Below, one piece after another: positions 4,735-50,460 of a stretch of DNA of 58,807 nt; the first letter of the stretch is position 1; every line of letters starts with the position of its first letter. Origin of the DNA: a virus (Duplodnaviria > Heunggongvirae > Uroviricota > Caudoviricetes); the IMG/VR virus record IMGVR_UViG_2788500396_000001, positions 64,859-123,665 of that record; one strand, given 5' to 3'. Both the position numbers and the translations under genes were made by a program. The notes under the pieces were generated by a model. It was given only the letters and a program-made list of their open reading frames with translations. It searched no databases and was not told the DNA's origin.

Positions 4735-4938
4735 ATGATGCGTGCGGACGGGCGACCACCGTTCTCTCCTCCGTGGAATCAAACAGATGAAGAACGAGAA
4801 GAAGAGTATCTCCAAGAGATGAAACGATTATCAATACAAGATTTCCTGTTGGCGGAAGAAGAATATGGCGATGGCAATATTGAAATTGCGGACGATGATT
4901 ATGTGTGGGCTGAAGTAGATTTCTGGAGGTGGACTTAA
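4735..4938 (+). CDS. acidic hypothetical protein
   Basis: 67-aa ORF with SD GAAGGGG, abutting the RNAP gene. Confidence 0.6.
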   Translation: MMRADGRPPFSPPWNQTDEEREEEYLQEMKRLSIQDFLLAEEEYGDGNIEIADDDYVWAEVDFWRWT

Positions 4939-5594
4939 TAGCACTTGATAAGCAAGTCCACTTATATTCTGTCGATACAAAGGCATTTTACACTGATGAA
5001 GAGATGGCGCTCAATCGAAAGATAGATGCAATGAGATACGAGAGAAAACAGATCAAAAAGGTTGTTGATATATGGACTGCATTTATTAGCAAAAAAATAA
5101 CGGAAAAGAAAATGGCGCGGCTTTTAAAGGATGCAAAATATGATGGCGATCCGCTTACGACAGAAATAGTGGATGATTTGAAGCAGCGCTCAAAAGATCT
5201 GATTGACCCAATCAATCAAACAAAGAAAGCGCTGTTGGATAAGCTTGAAATGTATCAGGGGATTCGAACATTTCGCCATGAGTTTTTAAGGGACCGAAAT
5301 GTTATCTCGATCTTTGAATCCGAATTGACCAGGATGGTCGGGATAGAGACCAACACCCTGACAGATGAATTGGTCGTAGTCAAAACGTGCTACTTCAAGG
5401 TACTGAAAGACATCGTTCTAAACGGGTTTCATTTAAACGAAAATCGTTATGTGTGCCTGACGGCTTCGGCGGGGCAAATAAGAACGAAACGTTCACTGTT
5501 CATCAAAGAAGACACTTATCATAGAATCATGGGCCGCCTGATGTGCGGGCTTACGGTTGAAGATATCAATAACCAAGGCGGGATAAATCCGAAT
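4929..5594 (+). CDS. yonO: YonO-like single-subunit RNA polymerase, exon 1
   Basis: LDKQVHLYSVD...TASAGQIRTK...GGINPN resembles the SPbeta YonO N-terminus as I recall it. The frame is stopped by the first intron bases (TAA). The true start may be ATA 4938. Confidence 0.85.
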
Positions 5595-6863
5595 TAACAA
5601 AATGGTTCCTTTACACGGTAACGTGTATCGAAAACGTGGTGAACCCAGAAATCTGGGGTGTGAGGCGAAAGCCTTGCTAACAGGAGAAGCTAAGTAAATT
5701 CACTATATTTTTAAAAAACAATAGGATTGGAGGTGAGACAATAGGAGCATTGATTGATTTAACTGGGCAAAGATTTGGGAGATTGACAGTATTAGAAAGA
5801 GATAAAAGCACAGAAAGCAGCAATAGGACATTATGGAAATGTGTTTGTGATTGCGGCACTATGAAATCTGTATCCTCGCACGCATTAAGATATGGTCTTA
5901 CTAAATCATGTGGATGCCTCAGCCGTGAAATTGCTTCACGCCAAAAAGATTTATCACATATGATCGGCAAAAGGTTTGGAAATCTCACAATCATAAATAG
6001 AGATAAAAATCATATTACTCCGAGCGGCCAAAGCAAAGTCAGATGGGTTTGTTTATGTGATTGCGGGAAAGAAACAACAGTAAATTTTTCAGAGTTAAAA
6101 AGTGGACATACAAAATCATGTGGCTGCATGACAAAAAGGCCTAAAGGGTCTGGGCTTATTGATTTGACTGGCCGTCGGTTTGGGAAACTGGTGGTTGTTG
6201 AAAGAGCGGAGGATTATGTTTATAGAACTGGTTCTAAAATAACAACACTGCCGAGATGGCTGTGTCGATGTGACTGTGGTAATGACGTGGTTGTGCAAGG
6301 CGGAAATTTGAGAAGTGGTGTTACAACAAGTTGTGGATGTCAGAATCGATCTTCCAGAGGGGAACGTTATATTTCAGAGTTTTTGACGGAGCATTGCGTT
6401 AAATTTCTTCGAGAATATTCGTTTGATGATTTAAGAAATAGACATGGGAATTTATTGAGATTTGATTTTGCTATACTGGGCGATAATGACGATATTGTTA
6501 TGTTGGTCGAGTATCAGGGCGCTCAACACTATATTGATTGCGGACTGTTTGGATTGTATCAACGCCAATATAGTGATGCAATGAAGCGAGACTATTGTGA
6601 AGCAAAACAAATCATGTTATACGAGATAAGATATGATGACGACTTGAACAGTTCCCTAAATGTTATGCTTGAGGAAATTAATAAACGAAAATAAATAGTG
6701 AATTTATATGCCAATCTCTGTGCCAAGCCCGTAAGGGAAGGTGCAACGACTAATTGTAGTCGTCCGGTGAAACTCCGGCGGCGAAGCGCCACGCCCCTTC
6801 ATTTGGAGGGTGATGATATAGTCTACTCCCCTAATAAATATCGGGAAACCGAGGGTATTTAGG
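5595..6863 (+). mobile_element. group I intron 1 with homing endonuclease
   Basis: 5' exon ends in U with P1 GAAU/GGUUC (U.G). P7 elements GCAACGACTA and GATATAGTC are present, and the intron ends in G. Removal fuses GGINPN|KYLAYLAL in frame. Confidence 0.9.
5741..6694 (+). CDS. intron-encoded homing endonuclease
   Basis: Three DLxGxRFGxLxV...W.C.CDCG...SCGC repeats, then a Vsr/DUF559-like nuclease domain (LRFDF...VEYQGAQHY). SD GGAGGTG favours ATA 5741; the ORF track starts at TTG 5750. Confidence 0.8.
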   Translation: MGALIDLTGQRFGRLTVLERDKSTESSNRTLWKCVCDCGTMKSVSSHALRYGLTKSCGCLSREIASRQKDLSHMIGKRFGNLTIINRDKNHITPSGQSKVRWVCLCDCGKETTVNFSELKSGHTKSCGCMTKRPKGSGLIDLTGRRFGKLVVVERAEDYVYRTGSKITTLPRWLCRCDCGNDVVVQGGNLRSGVTTSCGCQNRSSRGERYISEFLTEHCVKFLREYSFDDLRNRHGNLLRFDFAILGDNDDIVMLVEYQGAQHYIDCGLFGLYQRQYSDAMKRDYCEAKQIMLYEIRYDDDLNSSLNVMLEEINKRK

Positions 6864-7934
6864 AAATATTTAGCATACCTCGCCTTAAATAATTCTGCCA
6901 CAGATGTATGGAACGAGTTTAATATCAGAAAAACAATTGTGGTTGATGATATGGAAACTGAAGTCATGAACTTGGTTGACTTTATTGATGATAAGACATA
7001 TTCCGTAGAACGGAAGACTACCCCTGTTCCGATTACACATACAGATGGATCTGGGATGGTTCGCCTTGATGTTAGCAGGAAAAACTTTATGTTCCGGGCG
7101 GCTTGGATCAAAGGATTGCTAAACGCATTTCCTTTTGACAAATTTATCCGGGAGGCAAACAGGAAAGATCCGCTTGTTAATCATGGGATCGTTAAAGATA
7201 TTTACGGAGTAGAACACGATATCTTAGCGGAAGACATTCAGGTAATCTTGACGAAGAGTCAGTTTAAACTTTGGAAATATTATGAGTCGTGGGAACAATA
7301 TTGCGACTATTTCGAGCGTTACGGGTGCCAAGCATGCGTATGTAATTTGGAACCAACGCAGTTTGAAAAAGCGAAAATCAACTATCAGATGCTGCAAACT
7401 CTAACTGACCTTACCGATGAAGAGCTACTGAACATCAGCAAAGGAACTCGTACTAAGCTAGAGAACCTTGCATCTGATCGAAACACAATGTTGAAGGTAT
7501 TTGGTGCCACTAAAGAGAATGAGCGCCGGAATGGATTCCAAGAATCGTTGTTGTTATATCCGGAGCTCCTCCAGGATGAATACAGTAAAGAGACGCTTCG
7601 TGAGATTAAAAAGAGCATCGAGAAAGAAGCAAAAGCAGGTAAGCTGGATGTGGATGGATGTTACACGTTTATTGTTCCAGATATGTACGCATTTTGCCAA
7701 TGGTTGTTTTATGGAGACAAAAACCCAAGTGGATTACTAGGAAATGGAGAAGTGTATTGCCCACTGTTTGCTGGAGGGGTAGAGCTGGATTGTCTGCGAA
7801 GTCCTCACCTGTATGTGGAACACGCAGTTAGAACCAATATGGTTGGGGCTGATCATGAACTCGGCCGGTGGTTTAAAACCAATGCTATTGTAACAAGTGT
7901 CCATGATGTTATAAGTAAGATTTTGCAATTCGAT
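6864..7934 (+). CDS. yonO: YonO-like RNA polymerase, exon 2
   Basis: In frame with ORF 6939..7937. Contains TDGSG and LRSPHL motifs of the two-barrel RdRP/YonO family and ends ...ILQFD. Confidence 0.9.
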
Positions 7935-8260
7935 TAGTTCGTCGCGGTCGAACCCATAGGGAAACCATGGGATATAAAACAACGAGAACTCGGACATCCG
8001 AGGTGTCGCTCTGACGGTAGGCTCCGCAGGAAATGGCGGATAGCAGGGCGGCTAACAGGGGACGTGAGAGCTATCCTGTGACGAGCCTTGCCAGCAACCT
8101 ATGGTAAGGAAGTTGCATCGACTATGGAAAGGGGAGCTGTTGTCCGTGCGGGGCAATAGCAAGACTGAGTACAGTAGGCGTGTGGTGAAATTCCTCGCGC
8201 CGAAGCACGTTGGGCCTAAACGGGAAACCGCATGGCTATGATATAGTCAGTATCTCTATG
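7935..8260 (+). mobile_element. group I intron 2 (326 nt, no ORF)
   Basis: P1 UUCGAU/GGUCGAA with U.G at the splice site; 8-bp P10 between UCGUCGCG and exon UGCGACGG. P7 elements GCATCGACTA and GATATAGTC are present, and the intron ends in G. Confidence 0.9.
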
Positions 8261-9256
8261 TGCGACGGAGACAAGTCCTTGGTGGTTCAAGATCCTGATA
8301 TTGTGCAGGCAGCGAAGCGTAATACAGAAAAGATTGTCCCTTTGTATTACGAGATGAAGAAAGCTGGCGCACAGCCAATCACCAAAGAAAATATATATGA
8401 CAGTATGATTCTGGCCTATGTCGGAGGAAATATTGGTCAGATATCAAACGATATTTCGATTATCTGGAACGAAGAAAGTTGCGAAAATAGACTTGACGTA
8501 GTGAAACTTCTTTGTATGGAGAATAATTACACTATTGATTTTGCAAAAACTCTTTATAAGCCTGTGCGCCCTGACCAAATACACTCTATGATTCATCGGT
8601 ACACGAAGAAGAAAGTTCCTCACTTTTTTGTGTATGCAAAAGATAAGACTGAAGCACAGGTAGAGCCAATTAACAGCAGCCCCGTAAATCGACTTGAATA
8701 TATTATTCCAAAAATAAAGATGGATTTTAAAACGCAATCTCTTGGAAAGTTTGATCCTAAGATGTTAATGCGTGAAAGTATCGTCCCGACGAACGATATT
8801 ACCCAGAAGATTATAGAGACTTATGGGACGATGTCTAAGTCTGATGCGATGAAGGCTGGGCGTGATGAGCGCGGGGTTCCGAGAAGCTTATATGGATATC
8901 AAAAAATTATCGACTCGCTTTTGGAAATTTGCAATGACATTTATTTTGTGACGGATGTTTTAATCAAAGAACTGTTTATCCGGAGAAAGAGCAAACGAAA
9001 GAATATCTTTTGGATGTGCTTTGGCGATATTGTTGCTGAGAATATTAAGCGGAACATTGGCAGAAAAACTGGAATGTGCGTAAAGTGCGGAGCTCGTTTT
9101 TATCGAGAATCCAATAGACAGGTAATGTGTAAGTCGTGTGCTGCACAAAGCCGGAAGATATCTAATCGAATGGCACAACGCAGAAAAACCGCAAAAAAAT
9201 CAGCATTTAAGAAAATTCCTGAAACCGTTGTGGCACAGCAGGTGTATGGAAAATAA
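8261..9256 (+). CDS. yonO: YonO-like RNA polymerase, exon 3
   Basis: Starts CDGDK, so splicing restores LQFD-CDGD (DxDGD). C-terminal CxxC...CxxC ribbon. The spliced product is ~910 aa. Confidence 0.9.
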   Translation, partial: CDGDKSLVVQDPDIVQAAKRNTEKIVPLYYEMKKAGAQPITKENIYDSMILAYVGGNIGQISNDISIIWNEESCENRLDVVKLLCMENNYTIDFAKTLYKPVRPDQIHSMIHRYTKKKVPHFFVYAKDKTEAQVEPINSSPVNRLEYIIPKIKMDFKTQSLGKFDPKMLMRESIVPTNDITQKIIETYGTMSKSDAMKAGRDERGVPRSLYGYQKIIDSLLEICNDIYFVTDVLIKELFIRRKSKRKNIFWMCFGDIVAENIKRNIGRKTGMCVKCGARFYRESNRQVMCKSCAAQSRKISNRMAQRRKTAKKSAFKKIPETVVAQQVYGK

Positions 9257-9316
9257 AGGGATAAATGAAAAAATACAAAACCCGGAAACCGTTGTGGCGC
9301 AATAGTTTCCGGGTTT
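9218..9316. repeat. direct repeat GAAACCGTTGTGGCRCA x2; the second copy sits inside a 12-bp inverted repeat
   Basis: Copies near 9221 and 9285. AAACCCGGAAAC (9278-9289) pairs with GTTTCCGGGTTT (9305-9316). Confidence 0.7.
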
Positions 9317-9326
9317 GAGCGATCTC

Positions 9327-9337
9327 CTATATAAGGG
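9327..9337 (+). promoter_or_regulatory. candidate phage-RNAP (late) promoter element CTATATAAGGG
   Basis: Intergenic, upstream of the long rightward late operon. An exact second copy lies at 48330-48340, also intergenic. Confidence 0.35.
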
Positions 9338-9421
9338 AGAAAAAGGAGCAAAGTACACAAGATGCTTTCTTGAAGTTCCTAGTTTTTGCTTCTCCAAATT
9401 GATAATGAGGGATGTGTTGTT

Positions 9422-9586
9422 CTGATTTATGTCAGAAAAGACGAAGTTGATTATCTTCGTCAGAATGGGCTTGCCCATGAAGTGTTGGCTAAGACATGCC
9501 ACGGTAAGCATTTTGCTGTTGAATCGCGTGCTGTTCTGAGTGCCTTAAAGAAGTACAACGATAGTCGTGTTCCAAAAAATAATTGA
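9422..9586 (+). CDS. small hypothetical protein
   Basis: ORF 9386..9586; SD GAGGGA suggests a CTG/ATT start at 9422/9425. Confidence 0.6.
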   Translation: MIYVRKDEVDYLRQNGLAHEVLAKTCHGKHFAVESRAVLSALKKYNDSRVPKNN

Positions 9587-11014: not shown

Positions 11015-12320
11015 ATGTAAGAAAACCAGAAAAGGATGTATCGTTTGTGGAGAAAGCCTACAAATTTCGCCTGTACCCTAACAAGGCGCAGGAGGAGCTG
11101 ATACGCAAAACCATCGGTTGCGCCCGCTTCGTCTACAACCAAACCCTGGCTGCCCGCAGAGGTGCCTACGCCGCAGGAAACCAACTCAGCGGTTACGACT
11201 GTGTGAAACTGCTGCATGGGATGAAGGGGTCCTACTCCTGGCTTAAAGAGGTAGACTCCACCGCCCTGCAGACCTCAGTGCTACAGATGGATCAGGCCTA
11301 CAAGAATTTCTTTGCCGGTCGCAAAGGCAAGCGCAAGGTTGGTTTTCCAAAGTTCAAGTCCAAGCATCGTAGCCGCGCCAGCTACACCAGCAAGGTGGTT
11401 GGACAAAACATCCAGGCATCTGATAGGGCGATCCGGCTTCCCAAGCTGGGCTGGGTAAAGGCCAAGGTCTCAACCCCTGTACATGGACGGATTCTCCACG
11501 CTACCGTCAGCATGAGCCGGAGCGGTAAGTTTTTCGTGAGTCTATGCTGCACGGAAGTAGATATCCCACAGTATTCCAGCACCGGTGCCGTCGCCGGCAT
11601 TGATGTGGGCCTCAAAAACCTGGTGATCACCAGCGACGGCCAGAAATTCAGCAACCTCAAGCACCTGCAGCAGGCAGAGCAGCGGCTCATCAAGCTCCAG
11701 CGGCGGCTGTCCCGAAAGCCAAAGGGCAGCCGCAACCGGGAGAAGGCCCGCCTCCGCTTGGCCAAGCAGCATGAGTACATCGCCAACTGCCGGCAGGACT
11801 ACCTGCATAAGCTGACCACTCAGTTGGTCAGGGCCTATGGCATTATCTGCGTGGAAAGCCTCAATGTAAAAGGCATGATGGCCAACCATAAACTGGCCAA
11901 GGCGATTGCCGACGCCTCTTGGGGAGAGTTGGTCAGGCAGCTGAAATACAAGACTGCCTGGCAGCATAAGCAGCTGGTTGAGGTGGGCACTTTCTACCCC
12001 AGCAGCCAGCTGTGCAACCACTGCGGCTATCAGAATGCAGAGACCAAGGACTTGGCGCTCCGGGAGTGGACATGCCCAAAGTGCGGCCACCGGCATGACC
12101 GGGATGTCAACGCCGCCCAGAACATCCTGCATGAAGGACTGAGGCTGCTGGCCAGTGCTTAAATAATAATTTTCCAACGGTACGGTGGGACACACCGGAA
12201 CCTACCAAAACGCTTGGGGAGATCGTGTAAGACCCCGGTGCTTTGTGGGCAACTGCAAAATACTTGGGCGGTGATCGTCGAGCCAAGAATCCCCTGACTT
12301 TAGACAGGGGGGAGTGTCAA
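10951..12320 (+). mobile_element. IS200/IS605-family element, tnpB only (no tnpA)
   Basis: Right end GAATCCCCTGACTTTAGACAGGGG...GTGTCAA ends in TCAA at 12320. The left end is inferred after TTAT (10947-10950). GC is visibly higher than in the flanks. Confidence 0.75.
11047..12162 (+). CDS. tnpB: TnpB RNA-guided nuclease
   Basis: [11 protein letters not shown]-terminal HTH; RuvC GIDVG, VESL and DRDVNAA; CNHC/CPKC zinc finger. The catalytic D/E/D residues are intact. Confidence 0.95.
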
Positions 12321-13530: not shown

Positions 13531-13609
13531 GGACCTTTAGCTTAGTTGGTTTTAGAGCATACGACTGTTAATCGTAAGGTCGTGGGTTCGAGTCCCACAG
13601 GGTCCTCCA
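13531..13609 (+). tRNA. tRNA-Asn(GTT), atypical G1-C72/U73
   Basis: Cloverleaf, anticodon arm TACGA-CTGTTAA-TCGTA, GTTCGAG T-loop, encoded CCA. Confidence 0.9.
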
Positions 13610-13612
13610 TAT

Positions 13613-13700
13613 GGGTCGGTATGTCTAGTTGGCGATGACACTTGACTGTAAATCAAGCACGTAAGATACACCGTAGGTTCGACTCCTACCCGGCCCACCA
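13613..13700 (+). tRNA. tRNA-Tyr(GTA)
   Basis: CTTGA-CTGTAAA-TCAAG, long variable region, CCA. Confidence 0.9.
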
Positions 13701-13703
13701 TTT

Positions 13704-13777
13704 AGGGGTATAGCTCAATGGTAGAGTGACGGTCTCCAAAACCGGGTATGAGAGTTCGATTCTTTCTACCCCTGCCA
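13704..13777 (+). tRNA. tRNA-Trp(CCA)
   Basis: AGGGGTA/TACCCCT acceptor stem, loop CTCCAAA, CCA end. Confidence 0.9.
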
Positions 13778-13782
13778 CTCTT

Positions 13783-13856
13783 GGATCAGTAGCTTACGGT
13801 CGGAGCGCCGGTCTGAAAACCGGAGGATGCAGGTTCGATACCTGCCTGGTCCACCA
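13783..13856 (+). tRNA. tRNA-Phe(GAA)-like with a 6-nt anticodon loop
   Basis: GGATCAG/CTGGTCC acceptor, CCGGT-CTGAAA-ACCGG, T arm GCAGG-TTCGATA-CCTGC, CCA. Confidence 0.8.
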
Positions 13857-13860
13857 ATAT

Positions 13861-13936
13861 TGCGGATAGGACAAACGGTTAAGTCACAAGCCCCATAAGC
13901 TTCGAGGAACTGGTTCGACTCCAGTATCCGCAACCA
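13861..13936 (+). tRNA. tRNA with CAT anticodon (Met or Ile2), atypical
   Basis: TGCGGAT/ATCCGCA acceptor, loop CCCATAA, CCA. It has A8 and C33 and no initiator features. Confidence 0.8.
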
Positions 13937-13939
13937 CAT

Positions 13940-14015
13940 GCTGGTGTAGCTCAGCTGGCAGAGCAGTTGATTTGTAACCAACAGGTCGCAGGTTCGATCC
14001 CTGTCACCAGCTCCA
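13940..14015 (+). tRNA. tRNA-Thr(TGT)
   Basis: GCTGGTG/CACCAGC acceptor, loop TTTGTAA, CCA. Confidence 0.9.
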
Positions 14016-15108: not shown

Positions 15109-16179
15109 ACGGCTACTAGAACAAAATCTACAGTTGCAAACAAAAAATACAAATGTATATGCTGTGATACCGCAAAACCTGCATCATCATACTACAAAAG
15201 CAGGTATTCATATCTGTGGAAGCATTCAGATGGCGTGGCGGTAATTTGTAAAGATTGCGTAATGAAGATTCATCAAGATTATCTTGATACCTATAAAGAC
15301 CAAGAAAAAGCCATAAAGTGCCTGTGTGCATTGCTGGATTGGCCTTATATTGCAACGGTGTATTTTGGAAATCTTGGTGATGATGGTACGCTTGATTTAT
15401 CTGGGTACTATAGGCAAATCCAAATGAAGCAATATCAAGATCGTAATTTTGAAACATCTTTAGCAGATGGTGAATTGGGAAAGGATGCAGAGGCAATTCG
15501 AGATTGGCGTGCATCACAATGGACTAAAAAAGACACTCAGAATATGAATTATGCCATATCTGTAATTGGCTATGATCCATTTGATGTGGACGAGATTACT
15601 GATGAAGATCGGAAGTATTGCTTTAATATGCTTGCTGGCTATTGTGATGCTGAAGGTGTTCGAGATGATAGCAGTAAGATTCAAGCTATCATTCAAATTA
15701 CACAACTACATTTGCAGTGTAGAAAAATTGATAAGGTAATCAATGAAGAATTGATGCTGAAGATGCCAAATGAAACAAAGTTAAGAGCCTTAAGTGATAC
15801 GAAAGGTAAATTCTTGAATTCTATATCTACAATCGTTAAAGATAATGGACTTTCTGCAAATTACAACGACAGTAATCGAGCAGGGAAAAACACTCTTTCG
15901 ATGAAGATGAAGGAAATTGCAGAAATTGGGTTTGAGCAAATCAGGACTAATTTGTTTGATATCCATACTGCAGAAGCTATGCGGCAAGTGGCAGATATCA
16001 GCAACAGAAGCATTCTTGATCAGCTTTCATTAGATGATAGCGACTATGTTGATATGATCAAAGAACAAAGAGAAATGCTTCAATCAAAGACGGAACAATG
16101 TGAAGAACTCGAAGAAGAAAATAGATGCTTAAAAAATAAAATTGCAGAATTGGAGTCTTATAAAATTAAAAAGAGGTGA
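15109..16179 (+). CDS. hypothetical protein with N-terminal CxxC..CxxC; terminase small-subunit position
   Basis: ORF 15235..16179 extends stop-free to ACG 15109 (MATRTKSTVANKKYKCICC...) behind GGGGGG. It overlaps the terL start. Confidence 0.7.
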   Translation, partial: TATRTKSTVANKKYKCICCDTAKPASSYYKSRYSYLWKHSDGVAVICKDCVMKIHQDYLDTYKDQEKAIKCLCALLDWPYIATVYFGNLGDDGTLDLSGYYRQIQMKQYQDRNFETSLADGELGKDAEAIRDWRASQWTKKDTQNMNYAISVIGYDPFDVDEITDEDRKYCFNMLAGYCDAEGVRDDSSKIQAIIQITQLHLQCRKIDKVINEELMLKMPNETKLRALSDTKGKFLNSISTIVKDNGLSANYNDSNRAGKNTLSMKMKEIAEIGFEQIRTNLFDIHTAEAMRQVADISNRSILDQLSLDDSDYVDMIKEQREMLQSKTEQCEELEEENRCLKNKIAELESYKIKKR

Positions 16180-18437
16180 TTCTACTGGAACAGTTTTTCC
16201 CAAAAACAACTGTAGAATTATCTCAAAGAAACTTAGAAGAGTATGAGCGCTTTACTAAAATCATTAACGAAGGCCGTAAAAATCCTGTTTGGTTTGCAAA
16301 TTACTTTTTCGGGATTGAGCTTATGGACTATCAGCGATGGTGCTTTATGGAAAGTTGGGATAAGCCGTTTGTCCTGTGGCTTGCATGTCGTGGCAGCGGG
16401 AAAGCTCTTGCTGTTGGCACTCCTATCCCAACACCATCTGGATATACCACTATGGGAGAGCTGAAAGCTGGAGATGTTATATTAGACAACAATGGCCATC
16501 CAACTACAGTCTCATATGTTTCCCCGATTTATGTTGGAAATGTGTGTTATGAAATTACGTTTGATGATGGAGAATGTATTGTCGCTGATGCTGACCATTT
16601 ATGGACACTATCGACATCAGATAGTTCATATGTGACCAGTTCTACAAAACATATCGATAGATTCATATCGTTTAATCCTGATCTTTCTTTATACTTATAC
16701 CCTGATCACAAAGGAAACAAGAAAAAGATAGAGCAGATTATAAAGACTGAATCTGTTCCAACGAGATGCATTCAAGTAGATAATGAAAAAGGGTTGTTTA
16801 TGTGCGGAAAGAAGATGACTGTTACTCACAACACAACTCTAGCGGCAGTTTTTTTGATGACAAAAATGTTGCTGATTCCGGATTATCAAGTGTATATAAG
16901 CACTAACTCTGCAGCTCAGAGTATAGAAGTGTTTAAGAAGCTTGAGGATATAGCACTTCAAAGAATCCCTTCGTTTGCTTCCGCAAACGATTTGTTCGCT
17001 GGTGAGGTTGTAAAATCCGCAAATTCTGAAACTGGATTTATACACAACCCAGCTGGGCATACCATGAAACTATACAATAACTCTGGATTGACAACTTTGT
17101 CTACAAACCTGAATGCAATTCGTGGTAAGCGTGGATCAGTTCTATACGATGAATGTGCATGGCAAACTGAAGAGCAGATGGCGGCCACGGAGCATTTTGC
17201 TGATCTTGACTCTAGCTTTGCTTTAAGTACCAGTAAGATTAAATACATTAGGCCGAAAACGATGCCGTTGCAACTTCTTTATGCCTCTTCTGCCGGAGAT
17301 GTTGAATACCCATATTATTCAAAATATGTGATGTTCTCAAAGAAGATGCTGATGGGAGACCCGAATTACTTCGTATGTGATTTGAATGCTCATGCAATTA
17401 AAAACTATTCGTCAGTAAATGGAGTATTGATTGAGTCTCACCTAACAGATGAATCGATTAAGAAGGCCATGGAAGACGATCCTGATTCTGCAGAACGAGA
17501 GCTTTTCAATAGATTTAGAAAAGGCGGAGGAGAGAACGCTGTAGTTTCGATGGAGTCTCTGATCAGAAATTCTGATTTGAGATTACCATTGCTTTGTAAT
17601 GATACCGGCAAAAAGAAATTTATTCTGTGCTATGACCCTGCTAGAAACTTCGATGGTAGTGTTCTGAGTGTATGGCAATTGATTGAAGATAAATCGATAG
17701 GATATTATCTGCAATTAGAGAATGTGATTTCTATGGTTGATCCAGGAACATCTAAGAAGACTCCTTTGCCAATGCCGGCACAATTAGATATCATCAAAGA
17801 TACGATGATTGCTTATAATGGTGCTCGCGCTGCTGAATGGGAAAATATCGAACTTTACATTGATGCTGGTGCAGGTGGCGGTGGAATCAGTGCAGTGGCA
17901 GACCAGCTGATGGCTGATTGGACTGATCGTCATGGCAACAAGCATCGAGGAGTAATCGATCCTGATCACAAACAGTATGAAACTGCTCGAAAAACATACG
18001 TTGACGCTATGCCTATCGTACATTTGATTAACCCTAAAGGTTTTAAGGCGTTGATGTATAGTGATTTGGAAAAGGTTGTTAAGCTAAATTTGATGAAATT
18101 CACAGAGTATGACGGAAAAGATCATATAACAGTTGAGCTTCCAAATGGAGAATTCCAAGAAGCAAAGCTCTCACAAGAAGAGCAGATGGCTTTGGCGCAG
18201 ATTAACCTATTGAAAAACGAAATGTCGTATATGTGCCGATATGAGTCTGCCGGAGGCGGTATTTCTTACGATCTCGTTAGAGATAAACGAAATACAATGC
18301 ACGATGATAGATCTTATACAGCTGCTATGGCGGCATATGCCCTCACAACAAAAAGACGTAAAGACCTTTTGACAAAACCTAAGGAGAAAAAGAGCGTCCC
18401 TGTATTTAATTTCAGAGCGCCTAACATTAAGAAGTAG
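16176..18437 (+). CDS. terL: terminase large subunit (YonF-like) containing an intein
   Basis: ACRGSGK|TT Walker A, LYDEC Walker B, YDPAR and HDDRSYT nuclease motifs. Confidence 0.9.
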   Translation: MILLEQFFPKTTVELSQRNLEEYERFTKIINEGRKNPVWFANYFFGIELMDYQRWCFMESWDKPFVLWLACRGSGKALAVGTPIPTPSGYTTMGELKAGDVILDNNGHPTTVSYVSPIYVGNVCYEITFDDGECIVADADHLWTLSTSDSSYVTSSTKHIDRFISFNPDLSLYLYPDHKGNKKKIEQIIKTESVPTRCIQVDNEKGLFMCGKKMTVTHNTTLAAVFLMTKMLLIPDYQVYISTNSAAQSIEVFKKLEDIALQRIPSFASANDLFAGEVVKSANSETGFIHNPAGHTMKLYNNSGLTTLSTNLNAIRGKRGSVLYDECAWQTEEQMAATEHFADLDSSFALSTSKIKYIRPKTMPLQLLYASSAGDVEYPYYSKYVMFSKKMLMGDPNYFVCDLNAHAIKNYSSVNGVLIESHLTDESIKKAMEDDPDSAERELFNRFRKGGGENAVVSMESLIRNSDLRLPLLCNDTGKKKFILCYDPARNFDGSVLSVWQLIEDKSIGYYLQLENVISMVDPGTSKKTPLPMPAQLDIIKDTMIAYNGARAAEWENIELYIDAGAGGGGISAVADQLMADWTDRHGNKHRGVIDPDHKQYETARKTYVDAMPIVHLINPKGFKALMYSDLEKVVKLNLMKFTEYDGKDHITVELPNGEFQEAKLSQEEQMALAQINLLKNEMSYMCRYESAGGGISYDLVRDKRNTMHDDRSYTAAMAAYALTTKRRKDLLTKPKEKKSVPVFNFRAPNIKK
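16404..16832 (+). mobile_element. class 3 mini-intein, 143 aa
   Basis: Starts ALAVGTP and ends VTHN|T. W (DHLW), C (RCIQV) and T (VTHN) triad; no endonuclease domain. Confidence 0.85.
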
Positions 18438-18448
18438 GAGGTGACGCA

Positions 18449-19936
18449 ATGGAACATGATGGTAAAAATATAATTGTGACACCTTCGGACGATGATATTG
18501 CTCGTCATCAAAGCGCATATAATTTTGCATGGAAATATGCTCAGTTGCAGAAACAACAGCTGGTTGATCTGTTGAGCAATCGGAGCACATCGACTACTTT
18601 TACCAGATACACAAAAGAACAAATACTGCAGTATATGCAGTCTCCGTCAAGCAACGAAAAAAATATCCGGAATGCATCCATCTATATGTATGATGCATCA
18701 AGTCAATACCGGCGTTTGATCCAATATTATGCTTATATGTTTATGTGGGCATATAATCTTACTCCGATTGATTTTGATGTATCTAAAGTGAAGCAAGATT
18801 CTTTCCGGAAATCTTATCTGAAGGCTGTAGCGCAGCTAGATATGATGAACCTAAAGCATGAACTACAAAAAGCTATGTTGGTTGCTTTGCGTGAGGGCGT
18901 ATTCTACGGTGTTCAATGGTCAGGTTCAAATTCGTATTTTATTCAAAGAATTAACCCTGATATCTGCAAACTATCGTCTATTGTCGATGGAACATGGATG
19001 TATGCAGTTGACTTTAGTCAGGTAAAAGAAGACGAATTGATGTTGTATCCGCCTGAGTTTACTACTTTATATGAACAGTATAAAGCGAATTCGCAGCAAA
19101 GATGGATTGAGATTCCAGAATCAATATCATTTTGTCTGAAGGCAGATGAGACTACTAAAAGTTATAGCATACCCCCGTGGGCATCCACGCTGCCGATGTT
19201 GTACGACATTGAGACTTATAAGTCCTTGCAGGAGACCGCGTCTGAAATCTCTAACTACAAAATGATTGGCTTAGAGATACCTGTTGACGATGACGGAACT
19301 CCAAAAATGGATTATGATCTCGCATTGCAATATTATGAGCATATGGTGAACGCCTTGCCTCCATACGTTGGAGCTTTCATGGCTCCTATGAAGGCTTCTT
19401 CTTATAGTTTTGATAAGAGTGGAAATCTGAATGATGTTGATACTGTGTCAAGATCTGAGGAGCAATTCTGGAGAGAAGGCGGCACATCACCTTTGCTGTT
19501 TGGCTCTGCTGACAATAACACTGCTGGAGCGCTAAAGCTTTCTATTTCTTCGGATGAGGAAATCGTGTTCGCCATTGTGTATCAATGTGAGAGATTGATT
19601 AACCGTATTCTCAAGCAGATGTCCGGCACAACAAAATTCAAAATCAATTTCCTTCCAATCACTAAGTTTAACCAAAGTGATTGGATTTCTTATTATAAGG
19701 ATGCTGCAGCGCTCGGGATTCCAGTGAAGAGTTCTTATGCTTCTGCGCTTGGGTTATCTCCGAATGATGTTGTTGGCTTGAATTATGTTGAGATGAATAT
19801 GCTTGGCATGGGAGAGTTAACTCCATTGGTTAGTGGCTATACACAGTCATCCGCCGGACGCCCAACAGCTGACGATACTGAGCTGCAAGAATCCGGAGTA
19901 CAGACTCGTGAATCTGAGGCAAATACAAACAGATAA
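18449..19936 (+). CDS. portal protein (YonE-like)
   Basis: Follows terL, 495 aa, SD AGGAGGTG. Assigned mainly from SPbeta-like synteny. Confidence 0.7.
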   Translation: MEHDGKNIIVTPSDDDIARHQSAYNFAWKYAQLQKQQLVDLLSNRSTSTTFTRYTKEQILQYMQSPSSNEKNIRNASIYMYDASSQYRRLIQYYAYMFMWAYNLTPIDFDVSKVKQDSFRKSYLKAVAQLDMMNLKHELQKAMLVALREGVFYGVQWSGSNSYFIQRINPDICKLSSIVDGTWMYAVDFSQVKEDELMLYPPEFTTLYEQYKANSQQRWIEIPESISFCLKADETTKSYSIPPWASTLPMLYDIETYKSLQETASEISNYKMIGLEIPVDDDGTPKMDYDLALQYYEHMVNALPPYVGAFMAPMKASSYSFDKSGNLNDVDTVSRSEEQFWREGGTSPLLFGSADNNTAGALKLSISSDEEIVFAIVYQCERLINRILKQMSGTTKFKINFLPITKFNQSDWISYYKDAAALGIPVKSSYASALGLSPNDVVGLNYVEMNMLGMGELTPLVSGYTQSSAGRPTADDTELQESGVQTRESEANTNR

Positions 19937-45545: not shown

Positions 45546-46433
45546 ATGGCGGGAAATAAAACACTTAATGCTCGTCTTAGTCTTAAATGTGATACCTATG
45601 CTAACTGGACTAGCAACAACCCTGTCCTGCTTGCTGGCGAGGCTGCCGTTACGGTTGTTCCAGGAGAAACAGGCGCGGTTCAGAGAGAACCTGCTGTTCT
45701 GGTTAAGTTTGGTGATGGTACTTCTCACTACAATGATTTGCAGTTTATGTCTGCAAAGAGCGCTGATGTTTATGACTGGGCTATGCAGGCTCAGAAGCCC
45801 ACTTACCAGGCAAGTGAAATTCAGGGGCTTGATGATTACATCTCTGGCCAGATCAAGGATACAGATACCCAGTATCAGCTTGTGCGAGTGAGCGACACAT
45901 CCTTTAAGTTGCAGTCAAAAGAAAAGAATGGGGATGAGTGGGCGGATGTAACCACAATTGAAATCACCTATAACTTGACTGAAGGCGAGACAAACGGTAC
46001 AGTGAAGTTTAATGGTGTGGATGTTGCTGTTCACGGACTGAAATCTGCCGCCTATCAGGACACGACTGCTTTTGATGCTGCTGGGTCTGCTGATGCTGTG
46101 CAGGGCAATTTAGATACGCACATTCAGAATAAGCAGAATCCGCATAGTGTGGCTGCTGATCAAATAGGTGCCGCAAAACCAGGATATGTATTTTATATTA
46201 CACTTCTTGCATCTAACTGGGTAGATAATTCTCAAACTGTATCGGATATCGGTTTTGTAACATCTGGATATGCATATCTTATAAATCCTAGTGACGAAAA
46301 TTTTATATCTTGGAATGATTGTATTGTGCGTGGAAAAGATGTTGAACAAGCCGGGAAAATGAATTTTATATGTGAAGAGCAACCAAGCTCTGATATTGTG
46401 GTTAAAATCGTGCGAATGGAGGTTTCCGCATAA
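45546..46433 (+). CDS. tail fibre protein with Mtd_N-like domain and NPH repeat
   Basis: DTYANWTSNNPVLLAGE...KFGDG motif and HIQNKQNPH. Confidence 0.7.
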   Translation: MAGNKTLNARLSLKCDTYANWTSNNPVLLAGEAAVTVVPGETGAVQREPAVLVKFGDGTSHYNDLQFMSAKSADVYDWAMQAQKPTYQASEIQGLDDYISGQIKDTDTQYQLVRVSDTSFKLQSKEKNGDEWADVTTIEITYNLTEGETNGTVKFNGVDVAVHGLKSAAYQDTTAFDAAGSADAVQGNLDTHIQNKQNPHSVAADQIGAAKPGYVFYITLLASNWVDNSQTVSDIGFVTSGYAYLINPSDENFISWNDCIVRGKDVEQAGKMNFICEEQPSSDIVVKIVRMEVSA

Positions 46434-48274
46434 TGAGTGGGAAAGTGTTCAATATGACTGGGGGATCTGGCAGGGGGATTAAGTTAGTGTCTATTGACAT
46501 CGCAAAAGGACCAACTAAAACGATATATCGCCCTGGACAAATTTTCGATCCAGCCGGGATGGAAGTGGTCGCTACGTATACCAACGGAGCAACATTGCTT
46601 GCAACTGGATGGACATATTATCCGTCTGGTGCCATTCAGGCTGGCACAAATAATATTGAAATTGTTTACACTGAATCTGGCGTAACAGCAAGTGCTATGC
46701 AACCAATTACTGTCCGGACGGAGGTTTTTCAAGTTCCAACATATACTGGTAGTTTTATTTATAACGGAACACAACAATCACCTTCATGGAATGGATATGA
46801 AAGTTCTGAAATGACAATCGGAGGCACAACATCAGCAATTCATGCAGGATCATATCAAACAATATTTTCTCTGAAAGATAAAATTGGAACTCAGTGGGAC
46901 GATGGAACCGTTGAAGACAAATCGGTGGATTGGACTATCGAAAGGGCCAGTATTGATGTCCCAACACAGAGTGGGAGTTTAATATATGACGGAGATATTA
47001 AGTCGCCCACTTGGGCTGGATATGATAACATAAAAATGACTATTGGCGGCACAACGTCTGGAACCAATGCTGGAAGCTATAATGCTTCCTTCACTCCGAA
47101 AACAGACTATAGATGGAGCGATGGAACTACCACTGCCAAGACTGTGTCATGGTCTATTGGCAAGGCAACTGGTACTCTGACTGTAAGCAAATCTTCTGTC
47201 GAATTAAATATGTCTACACTGTCTACGACGTTTACTATCGGAGGCAATCATGACGGTACATTAAGTGTTGTTTCAAACAATACAGGTATTGCTACTGTTT
47301 CCCGTAGCGGTTCTACTGTAACTGTTACGCATGTGAACCAGACTACCGGTTCGACTACAATCACCGTAAGCTGTACAGCAGGTACAAACTATACTGCACC
47401 TTCAAGCAAAACTGTTAGTGTTGAAGCAAAGTTTGTCAGTACGGTTCTTAACGACAATGAATGGTCTGTTATTCAGAGTGTCGCAGATTCAAACCAAGGC
47501 GGTAACTATTGGTCTGTCGGCGACCGTAAGGCTGTGACTGTCAACGGAACTGTCGGCACCCAAGCCATTAACGGTACTTATTATGTTTACATTCTCGGAT
47601 TTAACCACAACAGTTCTCGCGAAGGAACTGGCATTACTTTTGGTACGTTCAAAACAGCTCTGAGTGGTGGTACTGATATTTGTCTTGTTGATGGTCAGTA
47701 TGGTAGCTCCTCAACTAATGGTACCAAGTATTTCAACATGAACCATAGCTCCAATACTAACTCCGGCGGATGGAATGGCTGTGACCTTCGGTACGATGTG
47801 CTTGGTAGCACCAACGTAAATAATGGTGATGCAACGGCCACATGTGCGACATCTCCTATTTCTGGAACCTTAATGGCAGCTCTCCCAAGCGACCTTCGTG
47901 CCGTCATGAAGCCGATGAACATCTACACCGACAACACGGGTGGAGGTTCCAACACCGCTTCTTATGTCACAAAGTCGGTTGATTATCTTCCTCTTCTGGC
48001 CGAATGTGAGATTTTTGGCGATGGATATGGTTATAGTGGTAGCGGCTACGCTAATGATGCGGAGAAAAATTACCAGCAACAGTACCAATACTACAAAAAT
48101 GGTAATAGCAAGGTGAAATACCGTCACAGCTCAACAAGTTCCGCTGCTCGTTGGTGGGGGCGTTCTCCTGGTTGCGGCGGCAGCGGCGCCTTCTGCGTTG
48201 TGGGCGCGGACGGCAACGCGACCAGCGGCTACGCAAGGTATTCCTGTGGGCTCGCCCCGGCTTTCAGGGTCTAA
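46433..48274 (+). CDS. DGR target: Ig-like repeats plus C-terminal variable (DUF6273/CLec-like) domain, likely receptor-binding
   Basis: N-terminal Big_3-like domain, two ~75-aa repeats, and a VR in the last ~45 codons (WWGRSP...GLAPAFRV). Confidence 0.9.
   Translation: MSGKVFNMTGGSGRGIKLVSIDIAKGPTKTIYRPGQIFDPAGMEVVATYTNGATLLATGWTYYPSGAIQAGTNNIEIVYTESGVTASAMQPITVRTEVFQVPTYTGSFIYNGTQQSPSWNGYESSEMTIGGTTSAIHAGSYQTIFSLKDKIGTQWDDGTVEDKSVDWTIERASIDVPTQSGSLIYDGDIKSPTWAGYDNIKMTIGGTTSGTNAGSYNASFTPKTDYRWSDGTTTAKTVSWSIGKATGTLTVSKSSVELNMSTLSTTFTIGGNHDGTLSVVSNNTGIATVSRSGSTVTVTHVNQTTGSTTITVSCTAGTNYTAPSSKTVSVEAKFVSTVLNDNEWSVIQSVADSNQGGNYWSVGDRKAVTVNGTVGTQAINGTYYVYILGFNHNSSREGTGITFGTFKTALSGGTDICLVDGQYGSSSTNGTKYFNMNHSSNTNSGGWNGCDLRYDVLGSTNVNNGDATATCATSPISGTLMAALPSDLRAVMKPMNIYTDNTGGGSNTASYVTKSVDYLPLLAECEIFGDGYGYSGSGYANDAEKNYQQQYQYYKNGNSKVKYRHSSTSSAARWWGRSPGCGGSGAFCVVGADGNATSGYARYSCGLAPAFRV
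48138..48265 (+). repeat. DGR variable repeat (VR)
   Basis: Aligns gap-free with TR 48921-49048. All 29 mismatches are at TR adenines. Confidence 0.95.
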
Positions 48275-48294
48275 TCTTGAACCAAATGAATCAA

Positions 48295-48310
48295 GCCCAC
48301 GACAGTGGGC
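48295..48310 (+). promoter_or_regulatory. DGR target-recognition hairpin
   Basis: GCCCAC-GACA-GTGGGC, a GRNA-type loop ~20 nt after the target stop codon. Confidence 0.7.
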
Positions 48311-48401
48311 GGATTCATAGCAGGTGAAACTATATAAGGGGTTGCCCCTTTGTGATTAGTCCAAGAGGACAACACAATAAAAAGAACGAAAGGAGATTTC
48401 T

Positions 48402-48860
48402 ATGTCAGTTTTGAAAGCACATCGGTCTGAAAGCAAGGCAGAGTACATCAATGTCGCCAACAAAATCTACATTCAGACCATCAACTTCCTGTCACGCCTG
48501 TCCTCGCGCTATTCAAGACTTGTTGCGTCAGAAGTGTCTTCCCTTGCCTCGGAGGTGTTAGACCACACTGAAAAGGCAAATAGCATCTATCCTTCTGATG
48601 CAATGAGGAAAGAACTTCGTAAGACGCATTTACTTGAAGCACGAGCATCCCTGATGGCACTCGATGTTCATCTTAGCCATTGTTATGAACTGATGATGAC
48701 CAACCCGTCAGGATGTTTTACGACAGGAAGCGGAAACATCGTTAAGGCTTCAGATGCCAAAAAGAAATTAGAACATATGGCACAAGAACTCGGCGAGCTA
48801 ATCGACCGAGAGAACGGGTTATTAACAAGTGTGCTGAAGAGCGACAAAGGCAGGAAATAA
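48402..48860 (+). CDS. avd: DGR accessory variability determinant (Avd-like)
   Basis: 152-aa helical protein (LDHTEKANSIYP...RKTHLLEARASL) between VR and TR. Confidence 0.8.
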   Translation: MSVLKAHRSESKAEYINVANKIYIQTINFLSRLSSRYSRLVASEVSSLASEVLDHTEKANSIYPSDAMRKELRKTHLLEARASLMALDVHLSHCYELMMTNPSGCFTTGSGNIVKASDAKKKLEHMAQELGELIDRENGLLTSVLKSDKGRK

Positions 48861-48920
48861 TGAAAATATGGGTGTATCTCTGTAAAACCTGTCGGTGAGT
48901 GTGTTTATTCGTACTCCCGT

Positions 48921-49048
48921 GTTCCACTGCTAATTGGTGGGAGCGTTCTCCTAATTGCAACAACAGCAACAACTTCTGCAATGTGAACACGAACGGCAAC
49001 GCGAACAACAACAACGCAAGGAATTCCAATGGGCTCGCCCCGGATTTC
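48921..49048 (+). ncRNA. DGR template repeat (TR)
   Basis: AAC/AAT-rich copy of the VR, located between avd and RT. Confidence 0.95.
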
Positions 49049-49290
49049 GTAAACCAGAAATGGTTAGGGTCAAACGCAGTAGCTCGAACCAGAGTGAACT
49101 ACGACCTTTACGAAAGGAGAGATACTTCCCGTGACGAAAGTCCGAAACTGCCCTTTGATGCTCAGACACGGACGCCGCCGAGAAATCGAGCGTGCATGGC
49201 GGGTGATGTATCTTACCCCGTTTCATGTGTGGGAGCAAAGCATATTAGACGATACCCTACAAGATATATGTACGGAGGGCGAATAACTTT

Positions 49291-50460
49291 ATGAGCAGAC
49301 GAAGCGGCCGTTACGAGCGCCGTAAAGCAAAACGAGAAGCGAACAGATTGCAGCGAAGTTTAGATGTAGGTGGACTGAACGAGGTATTTACTTACCATGA
49401 TTTATATAGCGCCGGTAAACAGTGCTGCAATGCTGTACGCTGGAAGAACAGTACACAACGATTTGAGTTGCACCTATTCTCAGGTACTGCACGACGCAGA
49501 CGGCTTATTTTAGAGCGAAAATGGGAGCCAGCTGCATATGTTCATTTTATGATTTCTGAGCGTGGGAAGACACGTCCTATTGACGCTCCTCGTATCCAAG
49601 ACAGACAGATACATAAGGTATTCACACAAAAGGTTCTGCTGCCTCTTTATTTACCGAGTATGATATGGAACAATGGCGCAAGTCTACCTGGCAAAGGGTT
49701 TGAGTTTTCCAAGAGAGAACTACGAAAAGACCTGCGCTTTCATTTCAGAAGATACGGAACGAATGGCAGCGTAATGCTTTTGGACTTCAAGCAGTTCTTC
49801 CCATCTGTATCACACGAGATGATATTCAAACGCCATAATCAACTCCTAAACAACAATGATTTGAGAGAGCTTGGCGATAGTATTGTAAACACCGTTCCGG
49901 GTGGCAAGGGGCTACCATTAGGTGTTGAACCAAGCCAAGCTGAAATGATTGCATTTCCCTCCGCTTTGGATAATTACATTAAGTGCCAGCTATCAATTCA
50001 ATGTGCGGGACATTATATGGACGATTATTATATCATCGTCCCTCCTGATAGAGATGCGAAAGAAATCATGAATTTGATTGTCGAAAAAGCTGAGAGCCTG
50101 AAGCTAACAATCAGCCGCTCAAAGTCTCGAATTGTACCGCTAACAAAACCATTTCGATATTGCAAAGCAAAATATCACCTGACAGAAACAGGGAAGGTTG
50201 TTGTTAACGGAAATAGGGATGGTGTTAAACGGGCACGCAAGAAAATAAAAGCTTTCTATCATAAGATTCAAAACGGTGAGATGTCATATGAAGACTTATG
50301 GACTTCTGTAAATGGAATGCTCGCCTACTTTGAATGTTATAACGACCATAAGAGAGTCTTGCGACTTCGTAGACTGTTCTATGCAATATTTGGATTCTCT
50401 CCAGAGCGGATTGAAAACTTTAGAGAAAGAGGAATAAAAGGTGAAATATATTGTTCATAA
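49291..50460 (+). CDS. DGR reverse transcriptase
   Basis: RIQDRQIH, LLDFKQFFPS, GLPLG..PSQ and YMDD motifs; no intron maturase or endonuclease domain. Confidence 0.95.
   Translation: MSRRSGRYERRKAKREANRLQRSLDVGGLNEVFTYHDLYSAGKQCCNAVRWKNSTQRFELHLFSGTARRRRLILERKWEPAAYVHFMISERGKTRPIDAPRIQDRQIHKVFTQKVLLPLYLPSMIWNNGASLPGKGFEFSKRELRKDLRFHFRRYGTNGSVMLLDFKQFFPSVSHEMIFKRHNQLLNNNDLRELGDSIVNTVPGGKGLPLGVEPSQAEMIAFPSALDNYIKCQLSIQCAGHYMDDYYIIVPPDRDAKEIMNLIVEKAESLKLTISRSKSRIVPLTKPFRYCKAKYHLTETGKVVVNGNRDGVKRARKKIKAFYHKIQNGEMSYEDLWTSVNGMLAYFECYNDHKRVLRLRRLFYAIFGFSPERIENFRERGIKGEIYCS

Follow-up and report, generated by a model that had tools for sequence, protein, structure and literature searches.

A YonO-like RNA polymerase gene of a large prophage, very probably interrupted by two group I introns, the second lying within the catalytic aspartate motif

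The DNA polymerase gene of SPO1 (gene 31) contains an intron of subgroup IA2 (PMC3428280), whose splicing has been confirmed experimentally (PMC11878797) and which encodes the HNH nicking endonuclease I-HmuI. In the jumbo phages PhiPA3 and AR9/PBS1, introns of other families, with other nucleases, are located in genes for multisubunit RNA polymerases: a self-splicing intron with a nuclease gene (gp210) occupies a conserved part of the RNA polymerase beta-subunit gene of PhiPA3 (PMC11620839), and introns of group I and of group II that bear nuclease genes occur in the virion RNA polymerase beta' gene of AR9/PBS1 (PMC12350094). A further gene, orf142 of phage Twort, carries three group I introns. 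The polymerase YonO transcribes the late operon of SPbeta (PMC5467207) and is encoded there by an uninterrupted gene; its activity is lost when the aspartate triad is changed to asparagine, which marks the triad as catalytic (Forrest et al. 2017, PMC5467207). In the Bacillus phages vB_BsuS-Goe11 and vB_BsuS-Goe14, yonO is interrupted by an insert of ~1.3 kb, which bears an open reading frame (ORF) and matches the Rfam group I intron model RF00028 weakly, and the gene is annotated as two, yonO_1 and yonO_2. No paper in the literature searched joins YonO with a group I intron, and a paper on SPbeta relatives makes no mention of introns. Here we describe a yonO-like gene that is very probably cut by two group I introns, in a viral DNA stretch of 58,807 nucleotides (IMG/VR record IMGVR_UViG_2788500396_000001, positions 64,859 to 123,665; hereafter the window).

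The ORF listing of the window contains three frames on one strand, at 4929-5597, 6939-7937 and 8210-9256 (222, 332 and 348 amino acids). The initial annotation had proposed that these are pieces of one YonO-like gene, which join in frame when 5595-6863 and 7935-8260 are removed, and that the second junction splits the catalytic DxDGD motif; each of these proposals held, and the coordinates proved exact. The joined frame comprises 2733 nt and 910 codons without an internal stop. It is composed of exon 1 (4929-5594; 222 codons, GTG start), exon 2 (6864-7934; 357 codons, ending in QFD) and exon 3 (8261-9256; 331 codons plus stop, beginning with CDGD), all on the plus strand, as are the features given below; the last base of exons 1 and 2 is a U. 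The exons correspond to positions 2-189 (E 1.5e-44), 190-550 (E 3.5e-141) and 551-844 (E 1.7e-68) of the 847-position profile phrog_8308, and together tile positions 2-844 with neither gap nor overlap.

The joined protein is colinear with SPbeta YonO over its full length and is 46% identical to it over residues 5-873 (tblastn). Exon 1 aligns with the N-terminal part of YonO, including SAGQIRTK and GGINPN, and exon 3 with the C-terminal part, including the C-terminal CxxC...CxxC, while the full-length identity of exon 2 is 50% to SPbeta YonO and its relatives, 59% to the homolog of Clostridium phage D-1873 and 54% to that of Psychrobacillus phage Perkons. The alignment with these three intronless homologs is gapless at both junctions, and the uninterrupted genes read motifs of the GGINxNKY and QFDxDGD types at the points where the initial annotation had expected them: GGINPN/KYLAYLAL corresponds to GGINPNKYQAYLAL in Perkons, and QFD/CDGDKSL to QFDNDGDKAL in SPbeta (in protein motifs the slash marks the insertion point; in helices it separates the two strands). 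The triad D579-C-D581-G-D583, which matches DNDGD of SPbeta, exists in the joined frame only, since intron 2 sets D579, the first catalytic aspartate and last residue of exon 2, apart from D581 and D583 in exon 3. A PDB sequence search with exon 2 gave nothing useful, and Pfam and NCBIfam contain no YonO model. Judged by its sequence, the gene, which belongs to a large prophage, encodes a YonO homolog, a predicted DNA-dependent RNA polymerase of the single-polypeptide, two-barrel type.

Both inserts begin with an in-frame stop codon. Exon 1 ends with CCG AAU at 5594 and is followed by UAA, the first codon of intron 1 (5595-6863; 1269 nt), which ends with UUUAGG at G6863, ahead of AAA UAU of exon 2. 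Exon 2 ends with UUC GAU at 7934 and is followed by UAG, the first codon of intron 2 (7935-8260; 326 nt, no ORF), which ends with CUCUAUG at G8260, ahead of UGC GAC GGA GAC of exon 3. The U.G pair in P1, the P7 signature and the terminal G that had been noticed initially were located in both introns, and the 8-bp P10 of intron 2 is likewise real.

In intron 2, P1 is formed by the exon sequence UUCGAU and the guide GUCGAA (7929-7934/7947-7952, with U7934.G7947), and P10 by UGCGACGG with UCGUCGCG (8261-8268/7939-7946), directly 5' of the guide, as in the textbook layout of these two helices. The remaining elements are P2 (7953-7957/7967-7971), P3 (7980-7984/8208-8212), an extra hairpin at 7989-8002 and another at 8007-8050 (the latter having an inner stem 8023-8040), P4 (8055-8059/8075-8079), P6a (8086-8092/8103-8109), P7 (8120-8124/8244-8248; GACUA with UAGUC, the latter inside AUGAUAUAGUC, which includes J8/7), P7.1 (8136-8145/8151-8160; 10 bp), P7.2 (8177-8185/8193-8201; nine positions, eight paired), a GUA at 8174-8176 just before P7.2, and P8 (8213-8216/8234-8237). 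The minimum free energy of the intron corresponds to a z-score of -3.3.

Intron 1 has a P1 of four exon pairs and two intron pairs (5591-5596/5603-5608, with U5594.G5605), a P2 with a GUAA loop (5613-5617/5622-5626), a P3 that spans the ORF of the intron (5635-5640/6788-6793), P4 (5680-5684/6717-6721), P6 (6722-6724/6740-6742; P6a is also present), P7 (6748-6752/6819-6823), P7.2 (6764-6767/6775-6778) and P8 (6795-6800/6805-6810). Its P5 (5695-5706/6695-6706) is a perfect helix of 12 bp that encloses the ORF, the 3' strand following directly on the stop codon of the latter. Intron 1 shares with intron 2 both extra hairpins, a GUGU motif, the motif GCUAACAGG, J8/7 with GAUAUAGUC and the GACUA/UAGUC P7. 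In subgroup IA2, the region between P7 and P3' holds P7.1 and P7.2, which a G-U-A connects (PMC3428280); in intron 1 the GUA and P7.2 are present, with no clear P7.1. Both halves of intron 1 match the half-models of intron 2 (described below) weakly, and its 3' core is similar in blastn to introns in 325 Firmicute phage records.

A blastn search with intron 2 against 50,697 phage records gave no match, and its DNA had just one 30-nt match, at chance level, in 300 genomes of the host family. Its RNA family emerged from a motif common to introns at the same site, AGGAAATG-N15-GCTAACAGGG, which occurs in more than 112 IMG/VR loci (range L169-L280), and from profile searches with the two halves of the intron 2 family, which returned 133 and 64 matches. 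Pairs in the stem 8007-8050 are 99% canonical among 112 distinct rows, and as many as six pair types occur at one position; the values for the inner stem 8023-8040 and the hairpin 7989-8002 are 97% and 93%. P3, which links the two halves, is 99% canonical with three to five pair types per position in 47 joined sequences; the corresponding values for P7.2 and P8 are 88% and 87%. None of 500 shuffles reached the observed pairing, and shifting the partners by one to three columns reduced it to 21-67%. In the closest relative (L281; intron 72% identical) P7 is changed on both sides, GACCA/UGGUC versus GACUA/UAGUC, and a two-sequence RNAalifold analysis of the window and L157 recovered P10, P2, P3, P4, P6/6a, P7.1, P7.2 and P8, and 31 of the 72 pairs had compensatory changes on both sides. 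Chance is excluded by the gapless tiling of the exons, together with the covariation of the helices in related introns.

One of the family loci (L172) is the SPO1 DNA polymerase intron itself (100% match), which the 5'-half model matches with E 5e-17. In intron 2, P2, P3, two hairpins, the AGGAAAUG loop and the GCUAACAGGG P4 succeed one another just as they do in the SPO1 intron, and the GUA stands ahead of P7.1/P7.2 as described for IA2 (PMC3428280). On these comparative grounds, intron 2 is assigned to the same RNA family as the SPO1 gene 31 intron, from which it differs in its host gene and in having neither an ORF nor a P9 hairpin. Of the Twort introns, the 3'-half model matches one (17360-17487); the 5'-half model, which holds the two extra hairpins, found no match in the first 50 kb of that phage. 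The family halves are spaced either 17-256 nt or 528-1248 nt apart, from which it follows that forms with and without an ORF coexist in the family.

Comparison with the Rfam group I models, which had been suggested initially as a check, turned out to be a weak test; the intron assignment rests on comparative evidence instead. At the gathering threshold no intron is called in the whole window. RF00028 matches the 3' core of intron 1 (6655-6845) with 26.5 bits (E 5e-4 in 3.1 kb) and does not match intron 2 at E<=10; in five other interrupted yonO loci there was no group I match at E<=1. The gathering score of RF00028, 50 bits, is a threshold set by curators and not a biological feature, and partial or missing matches of this model to group I introns have been reported (PMC11878797). 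It was reached in one of 14 family loci tested (L201, with 50.3 bits, at the cut-off, ~900 nt downstream of the 5' half on the same strand), from which it follows that introns of this abundant family are widely unannotated.

The distribution of such introns was surveyed by tblastn of the joined protein against 240 other YonO loci from genomes, IMG/VR and metagenomes, collections between which there is some redundancy. Twenty-three loci, or about 1 in 10, were interrupted, and ~90% were intronless. Seven carry an insert exactly at FD/xDGD (L083, L157, L281, L282, L321, L348 and L356) and two in its vicinity (L349, and L013 5 nt upstream), while 17 loci, plus Goe11 and Goe14, are interrupted at a third site, NFTID/YAKTL. 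Three loci (L083 from Neobacillus paridis, L281 and L356) are interrupted at both of these sites; the author of the initial annotation had known of no doubly interrupted YonO homolog, and such genes thus exist in public sequences. None of the 240 other loci is occupied at GGINPN/KY. At FD/xDGD the guide tracks the exon: the window, L157, L281 and L356 have UUCGAU/GUCGAA, L083 has UUUGAU/GUCAAA and L282 has UUCGAU/GUUGAA. P10 similarly follows the 3' exon: L157 and L348 have GUUGAUGG/CCAUUAAU, L083 and L282 have AAUG/CAUU.

The introns at the third site are relatives of intron 1, which, minus its ORF, is 60-67% identical to them and whose 3' tail, CUACUCCCCUAAUAAAUAUCGGGAAACCGAGGGUAU, is identical to theirs in every letter. 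In Goe11 and Goe14 the single intron, at NFTID/FAKTL (window residue 667/668), has a 3' tail nearly equal to that of intron 1. In a contig of run X1, from a chicken-gut relative, sequence like window 6707-6857 is joined to 8600-9500, such that an intron-1-like 3' core is followed by 66 nt and then by exon 3 sequence; this join indicates an intron of the family at NFTID/YAKTL in that relative. The insert of L356 at FD/xDGD is 888 nt long, with a 5' end nearly identical to that of window intron 2; since ORF-bearing forms thus occur at the same site and coexist in the family, intron 2 is most readily understood as a family member from which the nuclease gene was lost.

The sole near relative of the window phage, 96% identical and found in public run X7, keeps both introns, and no intron-less allele of the window phage was found; the contig of this relative diverges from the window upstream of 4924. 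Two substitutions in its intron 2, 8010 U>C and 8044 C>U, both preserve pairs of the stem 8007-8050. Occupied sites differ among close relatives. This sporadic distribution, with ~90% of the genes intronless and the sites variable, points to selfish elements, which is the best reading of the two window introns, and not to a conserved regulatory device. Taken together, the evidence makes it very probable that a single YonO gene is cut here by two group I introns, very likely of the IA type of Firmicute phages, which would have to self-splice for the polymerase to be made.

The ORF of intron 1 (5750-6694; 314 amino acids) is intact and lies inside the P5 loop. It consists of three Cys-rich repeats of ~65 amino acids and a C-terminal Vsr/DUF2726-like domain. 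Its PHROG matches, labelled as HNH or homing endonucleases, include phrog_374 (E 7e-54), phrog_559, phrog_9084 ("homing endonuclease") and phrog_7140 ("intron encoded nuclease"). Residues 237-297 match Pfam DUF2726 weakly (E 0.017), and the Atlas neighbours of residues 186-314 are DUF2726, DUF559 and AbaSI-like, the likeness to Vsr-type enzymes being weak; there was no PDB sequence match. The ORF is present in a single copy in the 3.67-Mb genome, in which introns 1 and 2 are the sole introns of their family. Intron 1 is most likely mobile by homing at GGINPN/KY through this putative nuclease. In L083 (7039-7880), the DxDGD-site intron has an ORF in its P6a loop, which by eye resembles an HNH-type nuclease (GYLVV...HRLVA). 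An HNH-like ORF in P6a there, as opposed to a Vsr-like one in P5 here, indicates that different nuclease genes entered different loops of related ribozymes.

The nuclease might also be regarded as a weapon against intron-less yonO genes of co-infecting or resident related phages, which would be cut at GGINPN/KY. The nuclease ORF is intact, the intron that bears it sits in the RNA polymerase gene of the phage itself, and the presumed target motif is conserved in the homologs; these traits would suit such a role, for which there is a precedent in PhiPA3, whose gp210 cuts the RNA polymerase gene of PhiKZ (PMC11620839). Identical sequence features, however, are expected from ordinary homing, and we regard this role as unlikely. 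A broader scenario combines several of these elements: one IA2 intron family would have colonised at least three YonO motifs (GGINPN/KY, FD/xDGD and NFTID/YAKTL), the first of them recently and ectopically by a relative of the NFTID/YAKTL introns, and intron carriers, by means of a Vsr-like nuclease that would cleave the polymerase gene in rival YonO phages, would gain an edge in co-infection, or else the ribozymes would time late transcription. As a whole, this scenario is speculative and rather improbable.

In the mechanism that we favour, i.e. self-splicing of two selfish introns, both would be removed from the pre-mRNA by guanosine-initiated splicing, the U.G pair in P1 setting each 5' site and the terminal G each 3' site, with P10 assisting the 3' site of intron 2. 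On the unspliced message, ribosomes would halt at the UAA or UAG that forms the first codon of each intron; after splicing the 910-codon frame would be readable and D579 united with D581 and D583. Intron 1, with a nuclease gene of its own inside the P5 loop, would in addition spread by homing at GGINPN/KY.

Since the triad is split, YonO activity would need both ligations, and splicing efficiency could then act as a timer or checkpoint of late transcription, a build-up of YonO then requiring the folding of both ribozymes and good translation of the message. In T4, intron splicing in vivo is dependent on translation and on growth state, and the periphery of the window introns is weak (P1 is short and P10 absent in intron 1, and P9 is absent in intron 2), so that splicing could be less efficient. 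The initial annotation had likewise suggested that late transcription might be gated by the two splicing events, for which we found nothing beyond the trivial dependence on splicing. Moreover, no regulatory element was identified, and the pattern of occupation, with ~90% of YonO genes lacking introns and the sites differing between close relatives, does not resemble that of a conserved device; we consider this role quite improbable.

Several observations weigh against the favoured mechanism. Neither intron attains the RF00028 cut-off. Inspection of the sequence of intron 1 revealed no recognisable P10, and its P1 has just four exon base pairs; intron 2 lacks the P9 hairpin, with no more than 12 nt between its P7 and the terminal G. 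The public RNA data consist of Logan contigs of metatranscriptomes, and two metatranscriptomes from chicken gut extend over parts of the region; no exon-exon joint was found, one contig from an RNA library (5337-5915) running unspliced through 5594/5595; such contigs cannot prove the absence of splicing and allow no verdict on it. The same RNA contigs and the missing peripheral helices could be taken as signs of decay, the introns having lost the ability to splice and yonO having become a pseudogene of a prophage that is itself defective. The exons nevertheless contain no stop over 2.7 kb and keep all conserved motifs of YonO, the core helices and the nuclease ORF are all intact, and the 96%-identical relative retains both introns with changes that preserve pairs, which together render decay very unlikely. 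Separate translation of the three ORFs into a split polymerase resembling the RNA polymerases of jumbo phages, as the 222-, 332- and 348-residue frames given by ORF finders might suggest, can be dismissed as extremely improbable, because the second frame, starting at 6939, would drop 25 conserved residues (KYLAYLALNNSATD...), the third would begin within an intron, at 8210, neither fragment is backed by free-standing homologs, and the inserts fold as ribozymes whose pairs covary.

Two other kinds of insert were considered and rejected: inteins, as both inserts begin with in-frame stops and fold as RNA, and group II introns, as there is no such structure and no reverse transcriptase.

The yonO gene sits in a prophage within a 656-kb contig of the 3.67-Mb genome. 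Downstream of it are genes for a ClpP-like protease, PhoH, a transposase, an exonuclease, six tRNAs, an integrase-like protein, the large terminase and the portal protein; in D-1873, PhoH is likewise encoded a few genes downstream of the YonO homolog. The terminase and portal genes (16176-19936) lie downstream of yonO, a place similar to that of SPbeta yonO upstream of the late genes, and by this analogy the polymerase would serve late transcription in the window phage as well. The transposase gene (11047-12162; phrog_506, E 1e-132) is located between the PhoH and exonuclease genes, and the six tRNA genes are clustered at 13531-14012, downstream of the polymerase, PhoH and exonuclease genes. 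The large terminase ORF (16176-18437) is long, with 753 amino acids, and its PHROG matches fall into two stretches, 68-158 and 219-730; an intein, an extra domain or some other insertion may be present in the protein. Among structured RNAs, an Rfam RT-2 RNA (145.7 bits) at 49065-49300 adjoins the putative diversity-generating retroelement (46433-50460) of the initial annotation. Skipping-rope RNA occurs a few kb downstream of yonO in locus L031 (12611-12696) and just past the yonO-hup pair in the Goe14 locus (L002, 7278-7387); the Rfam scan found none in the window.

The YonO introns are a fresh example of a familiar phage habit and introduce no new principle; what is new locally is the insertion site GGINPN/KY, so far unique, together with a Vsr-like nuclease ORF. 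Standard pipelines give three fragments here, as the initial annotation had foreseen and as the ORF listing bears out, in the same manner as yonO_1 and yonO_2 in Goe11 and Goe14, and at its cut-off the Rfam group I model misses an abundant phage intron family. The single-subunit YonO polymerases thereby join the essential phage genes that are hit by mobile introns at their most conserved motifs. Three sites within one gene, one of them with both ORF-bearing and ORF-less forms, offer natural material for the study of intron transposition, and the locus raises the question of whether nucleases of introns, when they target the RNA polymerase gene of their own phage, play a part in competition between phages.

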